The notes under the pieces were generated by a model. That model made no database searches. It was not told the origin of the DNA and saw nothing but the letters and a program-made list of their open reading frames with translations. The translations under genes and the position numbers were made by a program. Positions 13,806 to 14,334 of a DNA stretch of 21,248 bases are shown piece after piece. Source of the stretch: a virus (Duplodnaviria > Heunggongvirae > Uroviricota > Caudoviricetes); the IMG/VR virus record IMGVR_UViG_2563366853_000009, positions 1-21,248 of that record; one strand, written 5' to 3'. Positions within the stretch are counted from its first letter, which is position 1. Each line of letters starts with the position of its first letter.

Positions 13806-14091
13806 CGGAATACCTTATTACTGGTTGTGTGAGAACTCCAGTATACCACCGAGCCTGAAGTGGTAAAAAAAGACAGGCGCACAACACGAAAGCGCACGGA
13901 GGAGGTGTTTTTCCCTTAGAAGGCTTGTCGTTAAATTTCTTCGACCGTGCGCTTCCGGTTGTGGCAATCCGCGAAATGGCGCGGCGGTAAGTATGGCGAG
14001 GCTATCCTTTCCTCGAGATAACACCGGGTTGTCAGGCTGACCATACGCTTAAGTGACAACCCCGCTGCAACAACCCATGTTGATTACCTTT

Positions 14092-14133
14092 TGGCGGCAT
14101 CAGTTTCATTGCTGGCTGATGTCCGCCCTTTTT
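14092..14133 (+). terminator. Strong rho-independent terminator inside the ORF-free spacer
   Basis: 11-bp stem GGCGGCATCAG/CTGATG(T)CCGCC with one bulge, then CTTTTTAAA. Confidence 0.55.
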
Positions 14134-14334
14134 AAAGTGAATTTTGTGATGCGGTGAATGCGGCTAAGCGCACGCGGAACAGTTAAAAGGCCATTTGTTC
14201 TCCGTATCAATACTTATGGGTAGGTACTTGCAGGCGGGTCCCTGTATTCCGGCGTTAATTGTTAACTGGTTAACGTCACCTGGAGGCACCAGGCACCGCA
14301 TCAACAAAGTTCATTTGTAAAAATGGAGATAATT

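Follow-up and report, generated by a model that had tools for sequence, protein, structure and literature searches.

The locus

The window, a stretch of 21,248 nt, is a Rac-like lambdoid prophage of E. coli. The segment considered here, 13806-14334, is bounded on its left by a small minus-strand gene and on its right by kilR. The features of the segment and its surroundings are the following, with the evidence for each.

12834-13241, plus strand: DicA-like repressor (57% amino acid identity to K-12 DicA)
13328-13356, plus strand: putative dicBp-like (PL-type) promoter, TTGACC-17-TAAATT (promoter scan; hexamers as in K-12 Qin upstream of ydfA)
~13365-13426, plus strand: 5' UTR conserved with Qin (93% identical to the UTR upstream of ydfA)
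13427-13645, plus strand: first gene of the operon, 72 aa, no assigned function (phrog_23495, E 3e-49, residues 51-122 of the mechanical ORF)
13611-13805, minus strand: 64-aa gene, no assigned function, left border of the segment (phrog_22868, E 5e-47, full length)
13806-13899, minus strand: putative upstream/promoter region of the 64-aa gene
13867-13840, minus strand: promoter-like TTTACC-16-TATACT with an upstream TG (promoter scan)
13868-14077, plus strand: conserved untranslated leader, here the upstream leader (blastn to the Qin ydfC-dicF spacer; 48-sequence alignment)
13945-13987, 13997-14015 and 14026-14062, plus strand: predicted hairpins of the upstream leader, the first of which holds CCGCG-N6-CGCGG (13969-13984)
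14078-14133, plus strand: candidate small RNA of the DicF/KilS family, "type B" allele, with a putative 5' boundary (sub-threshold match to Rfam RF00039; alignments; fold z-score)
14093-14133, plus strand: predicted tL1-like intrinsic terminator, 11-bp stem with one bulge, 8-12 nt loop, U5 (terminator scan; fold)
14134-14334, plus strand: predicted structured, STnc100-like 5' leader of kilR (sub-threshold match to RF02076; RNAalifold, 38 pairs; MFE -72.8 kcal/mol, z -5.15)
14137-14156, plus strand: 5' arm of a long-range helix, GUGAAUUUUGUGAUGCGGUG, a predicted RNase III site (folds; homology)
14251-14277, plus strand: invariant hairpin, GGCGUUAAUU/GGUUAACGUC, with the GTTAAC copies in its loop and 3' arm
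14279-14293, plus strand: invariant hairpin, CCUGG-AGGCA-CCAGG, the best-matching part of the STnc100 consensus
14294-14314, plus strand: long-range helix, 3' arm, CACCGCAUC-A-ACAAAGUUCAU; the start codon of kilR follows 20 nt downstream
14325-14328, plus strand: Shine-Dalgarno sequence of kilR, GGAG
14335-14556, plus strand: kilR, inhibitor of cell division and elongation (match to phrog_294 'Kil protein' at E 1e-35; also annotated by PGAP in L002, a locus of 99.8% identity)

The 72-aa gene occupies the position of ydfA-C / ydaG-F, and kilR is followed by ydaE, a racC-like gene, recE, recT and ralR. The 64-aa gene is intact, stands at the sieB position of K-12 Rac, and bears no similarity to SieB. 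In the preliminary description the segment was taken to divide a post-repressor transcript from a kilR-recET operon. That division does not hold: the left neighbour is the minus-strand gene at 13611-13805, and the segment lies instead inside what appears to be a single early-left operon of the dicB type, starting at the promoter at 13328-13356. Much else in that description is borne out. It found no credible gene between 13806 and 14334, and the sole mechanical ORF of at least 60 aa is a GTG-started reading frame of 68 aa on the minus strand (13818-14024). It held that the segment is not AT-rich, and the GC fraction is 0.50-0.51 across 13850-14299 as against 0.38-0.45 in the flanks. A near-copy of the segment in strain Z1323CEC0006 (CP148466; 99.8% identity) carries no annotated feature.

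The terminator and a candidate small RNA

The arms of the terminator hairpin, GGCGGCATCAG (14093-14103) and CTGATGTCCGCC (14116-14127), form 11 bp interrupted by a single bulged U and are followed by T5 at 14129-14133; an intrinsic terminator with an 11-bp stem had been described at 14092-14133. A simple consensus terminator scan does not rise above chance (2 found, 2.1 expected), and the significance of the terminator accordingly derives from its fold z-score and its conservation in >100 related loci rather than from the scan alone. The stretch 14066-14135 folds at -24.2 kcal/mol, with a z-score of -4.20; none of 200 shuffled sequences is as stable. The sixth pair of the stem varies across alleles (U.G, C-G, A-U, U-A); the search pattern itself accounts in part for the lack of variation in the five basal pairs. 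The U-rich tract before the hairpin and the U5 tail together make up the usual Hfq-binding layout.

At Rfam gathering thresholds, a scan of the whole window returns nothing in the segment; only a permissive scan brings out DicF and STnc100, both below threshold. The covariance-model scan advocated in the preliminary description gave candidate families, and by the curated criterion the segment belongs to neither. The DicF model (RF00039) matches 14078-14128 over its full length (positions 1-52 of 52) with 34.1 bits and an E-value of 1.6e-5, against a gathering score of 48; canonical K-12 dicF scores 76.7 bits and KilS 39.1 bits on the same model. By the curated criterion, type B is outside the DicF family. 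Its surroundings are nevertheless those of dicF, sub-threshold score notwithstanding: K-12 Qin, in its ydfC-dicF-dicB spacer (L001 3663-4094), is 79% identical to 13868-14315 over 465 columns (blastn, E 3e-104), the operon is of the dicB type with a DicA-like repressor and a dicBp-like promoter upstream and kilR downstream, the flanks are homologous, and the 3' end at 14093-14133 is a Rho-independent hairpin with a U-tract.

The other relative is in Rac itself. From 14092 into kilR the segment aligns with K-12 Rac at 87% identity, and at the homologous place K-12 Rac carries the annotated ncRNA kilS (b4833). Both arms of the KilS stem, GGCGGCAUCAG/CUGAUGUCCGCC, are present in the segment, identical and at the corresponding position. 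The 5' body of KilS, which runs for 98 nt from a start site of its own and includes AUUGCUGUGUGUAGUC, is absent, and the segment has in its place a Qin-type leader and another 5' arm. In K-12, KilS and DicF are paralogues. The two are not named together in any paper of the literature searched; Faubladier and Bouché, in 1994, may have described dicF-like sequences in Rac already. Type B would be a further allele of the same kind, having the KilS stem without the KilS body and without the seed and loop of DicF. The small RNA had been one of several options offered for this segment, and it is the one favoured by the evidence: the sub-threshold Rfam match, 448 bp of homology with the dicF locus of K-12 and the stem shared with KilS support assigning the hairpin at 14093-14133 to the 3' terminus of a small RNA of the DicF/KilS family. 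PGAP leaves the small RNA of the 99.8% identical locus unannotated.

What such an RNA would act on is a separate matter. DicF pairs with the ftsZ ribosome-binding site through its 3' region and loop, and with xylR and pykA through its 5' arm. The canonical duplex with ftsZ reaches -38.5 kcal/mol and includes CUCCG:CGGAG; the best duplex of type B with the ftsZ translation start has -30.2 kcal/mol, where shuffles average -31.5, and it leaves out the Shine-Dalgarno sequence. The duplex/cofold test is of limited power, canonical DicF itself reaching only z -1.3. A search for complementary targets within the window yields self-antisense and chance-level matches only. With no above-chance pairing to ftsZ and no target found, a trans-acting role is assumed by analogy; since the 5' arm and loop resemble neither those of DicF nor those of KilS, the mRNA targets of type B are probably different ones.

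It might be supposed, then, that the hairpin is only a tL1-like attenuator for kilR-recET and that the type B RNA is a decayed relative of DicF devoid of trans function. The loss of the DicF 5' arm and anti-Shine-Dalgarno loop, an ftsZ duplex no better than that of shuffles and the lack of a complementary site in the window all point that way, and the stem of type B has fewer irregularities than the DicF stem (-21.0 versus -15.9 kcal/mol), which fits termination as the selected function. Three things count against this: the loop is retained, as is the motif CAUGUUGAUU of the 5' arm, across several independent genomic settings; the U-rich tract and U5 tail give an Hfq-type layout; and KilS, to which type B is closest, has been validated as a small RNA bound by Hfq. 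On balance we consider the attenuator-only explanation unlikely, and a small RNA that doubles as an attenuator the better account.

Alleles and their distribution

A pattern scan of IMG/VR recovers 119 loci. Canonical DicF is the majority allele among them; there are about a dozen of type B, a few of the KilS form and several singletons. Type B is defined by the 5' arm CCAUGUUGAUUACCUUUU, the loop UUUCAUUGCUGG and a perfect 11-bp stem with one bulged U. It occurs upstream of kilR (in the segment and in L002) and also upstream of dicB-like genes (L050, L113, L116 and others), and its occurrence before either gene indicates that the small RNA module and the downstream gene recombine independently. 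Among complete E. coli genomes the segment finds a counterpart in 4719 of 5426, in many of them upstream of dicB. In the same 5426 genomes, an 81-nt type B probe is covered to at least 80% in 83 and has any match at all in 212; none of the matches of this probe is annotated as RNA. Strain M19 (CP010221) agrees with the probe at 100% identity. The locus is also found in viable lambdoid phages, and in phage Tritos it is annotated as DicF. An exact 26-mer from the invariant downstream block occurs only in Escherichia and Shigella, and in two metagenome-assembled genomes labelled as other taxa, in a scan of one genome per species with an exact pattern that would miss diverged relatives.

A more far-reaching proposal, which we put forward tentatively and consider rather less probable than not, is that the DicF/KilS locus is a modular small RNA cassette in which the scaffold and flanks are invariant, 5' arms and loops are swapped by recombination, and each allele is thereby retargeted; type B would be a functional Hfq-dependent small RNA with a new regulon, not directed at ftsZ. 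The invariant flanks, on this proposal, are 54 nt downstream and ~130 nt upstream, and the alleles are canonical DicF, type B with its sub-variants, the KilS type and several singletons. The 5' arm of the KilS type copies 16 nt of the core small RNA RprA.

The upstream leader

The upstream leader has a mean column identity of 81% across 48 diverse loci. Its predicted pairing is retained in 97.4% of alignment cells, versus ~46% when partners are slid, and five of its 36 pairs change on both sides, a number that 2 of 500 shuffles reach. Its single-sequence fold has a z-score of only -1.82 and does not stand clearly above shuffles. The CCGCG-N6-CGCGG hairpin at 13969-13984 (listed previously at 13968-13983) belongs to this leader. 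Also conserved is an inverted repeat, AAGCGCACGG (13890-13899) with CCGTGCGCTT (13945-13954), for which there is no clear compensatory support. The repeated motifs remarked on in the preliminary description are indeed there, GCGCAC three times (13877, 13892, 14168) and TGCGG twice (14150, 14159): the GCGCAC of 13892 lies inside the inverted repeat and the TGCGG of 14150 belongs to the 5' side of the long-range helix predicted for the kilR leader, while the GCGCAC copies at 13877 and 14168 and the TGCGG at 14159 lie outside inverted-repeat and helix arms. At the left edge, 13845-13896 is 80% identical to the K-12 Rac stretch between KilS and sieB. The upstream leader may be a substrate for processing of the small RNA 5' end, or it may harbour an internal promoter, as has been suggested for KilS.

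A leader so strongly conserved and foldable, placed between a PL-type promoter and a strong terminator beyond which lie genes that must be expressed on induction, invites comparison with antitermination sites. It, or the kilR leader, would in that case be a cis-acting nut/put-like element allowing read-through into kilR-recET, and the apparent lack of an N-like gene would fit a protein-independent mechanism of the put type. This had been another of the options first entertained, and nothing positive has come forward for it. No Rfam family of this kind matches, even at E up to 10; the loop of CCGCG-AAAUGG-CGCGG is 6 nt long and, judged by eye, neither GNRA-like nor boxB-like, and the nearest boxA-like string, also by eye, matches at 4 of 8 positions; the 72-aa protein encoded upstream has no arginine-rich N-terminus. 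The low fold z-score of the upstream leader is a further difficulty. K-12 Rac, with its KilS-type allele, has lost ~110 nt of this leader and keeps both terminator and kilR. The nut and put sites of lambda and HK022 lie just downstream of their promoters, and the element in the segment does not. Antitermination is, on this evidence, most improbable.

The kilR leader

Alignment of 45 distinct kilR leaders shows two near-invariant blocks flanking a hypervariable, indel-rich middle (~14189-14250), which could be a second swappable module. The fold is closed by the long-range helix of ~20 bp, which, like the two invariant hairpins at 14251-14277 and 14279-14293, appears both in the RNAalifold consensus of the 45 leaders and in the single-sequence fold; the arms of the helix show one compensatory change (C-G to U-A) and several changes of G-C to G.U. 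Of the 38 pairs of the kilR leader, 4 change in both partners. Covariation is limited here, as in the upstream leader, because the sequences are so alike, the two blocks of the kilR leader hardly varying. The duplicated GTTAAC is present at 14261-14266 and 14269-14274 (formerly given as 14259-14272), within the first of the two invariant hairpins. The Rfam STnc100 model (RF02076) matches 14130-14342 with 33.2 bits and an E-value of 2.4e-5, below its gathering score of 47.

DicF exists in a 53-nt form, made by termination and RNase E action, and in a 72-nt form that RNase III cuts from the full-length operon transcript (PMC9438474). Adding 19 nt to the end of the K-12 53-nt form leads to position 11 of the homologous 20-nt arm (L001 3944-3963). 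Because the 72-nt form ends inside that arm, the long-range helix is probably an RNase III site; by analogy with DicF, cleavage would fall near 14147 and near 14300-14310, trimming the 5' UTR of kilR.

A plus-strand reading frame of 41 aa at 14195-14320 matches phrog_24763 (E 1.3e-10, residues 17-39), the sole PHROG or Pfam hit among the mechanical ORFs of the segment, and, together with the 68-aa minus-strand frame at 13818-14024, might be thought to betray a hidden small protein gene. What matches is the RNA block that does not vary. In a comparison of 45 loci the frame opens with TTG or GTG, or lacks a start altogether, spans anything from 21 to 53 aa, and in loci of the dicB type reads on into dicB; the stretch before it is rich in indels whose lengths are not divisible by three. 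It was rejected as a gene on this variation of frame, start and length. The 68-aa frame has no PHROG or Pfam match, and the homologous K-12 DNA has no annotated gene. The small-protein explanation retains hardly any credibility. Weaker still, with a negligible probability, is the suggestion that the segment is a decayed sieB pseudogene, prompted by the presence of sieB between ydaF and kilR in K-12 Rac: K-12 SieB, used as a tblastn query at word size 2 and with E up to 10, shows no protein-level similarity to any frame of 13806-14334, the segment is homologous instead to the non-coding Qin dicF spacer, the sieB position is held by the unrelated, intact 64-aa gene, and in K-12 Rac sieB lies beyond KilS and does not replace it.

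Interpretation and proposed mechanism

These facts suffice for a composite reading of the segment, to which we assign a probability of about 0.78: 13806-14334 is the untranslated middle of a lambdoid early-left unit (PL-type, of the dicB-operon type), and carries a DicF/KilS-family small RNA, an attenuator terminator and a structured kilR leader. Homology, synteny, fold stability, conservation and the distribution of alleles bear on it in concert with the lack of a coding signal. The interpretation originally given to the segment is in this way partly supported; the spacer is largely accounted for by known biology, and its architecture is that of an ordinary lambdoid operon.

From these elements we infer, for this strain, a sequence of transcription, termination, processing at specific sites, Hfq binding and trans-regulation. 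Transcription would start at the promoter at 13328-13356, under control of the DicA-type repressor, and proceed through the 72-aa gene into the leader at 13868-14077. Most transcripts would end at the 14093-14133 terminator, as in the dicF operon, and 5' trimming of the terminated 3' fragment (by RNase E in the case of DicF) would generate a small RNA of ~50-60 nt. RNA that reads through would continue into the ~200-nt structured kilR leader, in which the helix formed by 14137-14156 and 14294-14314 is a likely RNase III substrate; its cleavage would yield a longer form of the small RNA, with a 3' end expected by homology near 14147, and a kilR mRNA with a short 5' UTR. Termination ahead of kilR, with some read-through, would make the terminator a tL1-like attenuator that keeps expression of the toxic kilR-recET genes low and at the same time turns the aborted transcript into a regulator.

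Significance

DicF is among the oldest known bacterial small RNAs, and connects prophages with division and metabolism of the host cell and with virulence in EHEC. The Rfam and PGAP definition captures its canonical allele only. Divergent alleles, in which the scaffold is kept and the seed and loop are changed, go unannotated in ~2-4% of complete E. coli genomes, where they stand before kilR or dicB; this restricted coverage calls for a broader DicF/KilS covariance model for annotation. Should these alleles be active, retargeting of one small RNA scaffold by prophages would offer phages a simple route to rewiring host regulation.

Comparison with known systems

The correspondence with dicF in Qin is one of order as well as of sequence: small ORFs, a leader of ~340 nt, the small RNA with its terminator, a second leader of ~175-200 nt and a gene for a division inhibitor follow one another in both. 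The terminator base GGCGG...CCGCCC-U5 is common to DicF and type B, and the 54 nt directly 3' of the small RNA are identical in the Qin dicF locus and the segment. The differences are concentrated in the parts of the RNA that DicF uses for pairing and in the gene that follows. The 5' arm is CCAUGUUGAUUACCUUUU in type B and UUUCUGGUGACGUUU in DicF; the loop is UUUCAUUGCUGG in type B and UUUUACUCCGUGA in DicF, and because of this difference type B is without the anti-Shine-Dalgarno CUCC that DicF employs on ftsZ. The type B stem is perfect apart from one bulge, whereas that of DicF contains an internal loop, and the downstream gene is kilR in the segment and dicB in Qin.

KilS, which RIL-seq revealed among Hfq-bound RNAs and northern blotting confirmed, possibly has a promoter of its own (Bar et al. 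2021, PMC8175672). It shares with type B a position ~175-200 nt upstream of kilR, an identical U-tract and a downstream leader that is 87% identical. It differs in its 5' part, which is another block, AACGACAUUGCUGUGUGUAGUCCU, resembling the RprA seed, and in its longer loop; K-12 Rac also lacks ~110 nt of the upstream leader that the segment and Qin have in common. The TAAATT -10-like hexamer is preceded by TG in K-12 Rac and by CG in the segment, and this replacement would make a separate promoter for the small RNA less certain here than in K-12.

The kilR leader matches the whole 206-nt STnc100 model and has the outer stem and the CACCnGGAGGCACCnGGCACC hairpin in common with it. The relatives of STnc100 known as PasD are located in the late region, close to Q, and the commonest prophage neighbours of STnc100 are genes of the Fels-1 prophage (bioRxiv 10.64898/2026.05.13.724894). 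Their genomic context therefore differs from that of the kilR leader.

The nearest parallels in layout are found among the classical lambdoid phages. Lambda tL1 is an internal terminator in the early-left operon, ahead of the kil and recombination genes; the RNase III site of the lambda N leader exemplifies a structured leader before a regulatory or toxic gene; and the sieB/sas arrangement of P22 puts an exclusion-type gene in the opposite orientation in the same interval. The segment differs from these lambda and P22 systems in having no recognizable N/nut system and no sequence similarity to them, and in that the terminated fragment is here itself the putative regulator.

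The RprA seed sequence in KilS

The 5' body of KilS in the K-12 Rac locus (positions 4906-5003 of locus L003) contains the sequence AUUGCUGUGUGUAGUC, with AACGA just upstream of it, and the same is seen in three further loci (L043, L077 and L087). The stretch is the same, base for base, as the conserved 3' seed region of RprA, a core sRNA; the Rfam RprA model aligns at it with 28.1 bits and an E value of 0.41. The prophage sRNA may mimic RprA or compete with it. The KilS paper (PMC8175672) makes no mention of RprA.

The kilR/dicB leader

In an alignment of 45 distinct kilR/dicB leaders, the middle of the leader (window 14189-14250; alignment columns 55-120) is hypervariable, with many indels, and is flanked on each side by a near-invariant block. 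Relatives of the prophage sRNAs STnc100 and PasD reportedly carry different seed regions (bioRxiv 10.64898/2026.05.13.724894), and for this reason the leader middle could form another RNA module that varies, next to the sRNA itself. The match to phrog_24763 at window 14195-14320 is probably not to a real protein family: the family was apparently assembled from ORFs called across this conserved non-coding leader, in many cases as N-terminal extensions of dicB. Two metagenome-assembled genomes from unrelated taxa, labelled Proteobacteria bacterium (L130) and Candidatus Nanosynbacter (L134), also contain an exact copy of a 26-mer from the leader of the Escherichia prophages; the copies probably stem from E. 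coli prophage contigs that were binned wrongly.

Other RNA genes and the integration site

Rfam places RNA genes elsewhere in the window as follows, with matches that reach threshold; those of the first three lines belong to the prophage.

RNA genes and elements of the window (Rfam)
4425-4623, minus strand: C4 antisense RNA with its a1/b1 targets, overlapping an isrK match
6805-6979, minus strand: sok antitoxin (hok/sok)
18901-19081, minus strand: RalA, antitoxin of RalR
20643-20787, right end, both strands: SraC/RyeA and SdsR/RyeB sRNA genes

The SraC/RyeA and SdsR/RyeB genes lie just past the excisionase and integrase genes (gene order compared with the locus of E. coli Z1323CEC0006), which suggests that the prophage has inserted beside the ryeA/ryeB locus.

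The region upstream of the spacer

Directly past the dicBp-like promoter lies a 5' UTR (window 13365-13426) that shares 93% identity with the ydfA leader of Qin and includes a CACCG-CA-CGGUG hairpin. Lambda and HK022 have their nut and put sites at the corresponding place, just downstream of the promoter; this position makes the 5' UTR a stronger candidate antitermination element than the spacer at 13806-14334. The genes that follow, one of 72 aa (13427-13645, plus strand) and one of 64 aa (13611-13805, minus strand), converge with an overlap of 35 nt (13611-13645). Operon transcripts are consequently antisense to the entire 64-aa gene, an arrangement that recalls sieB/sas of P22.
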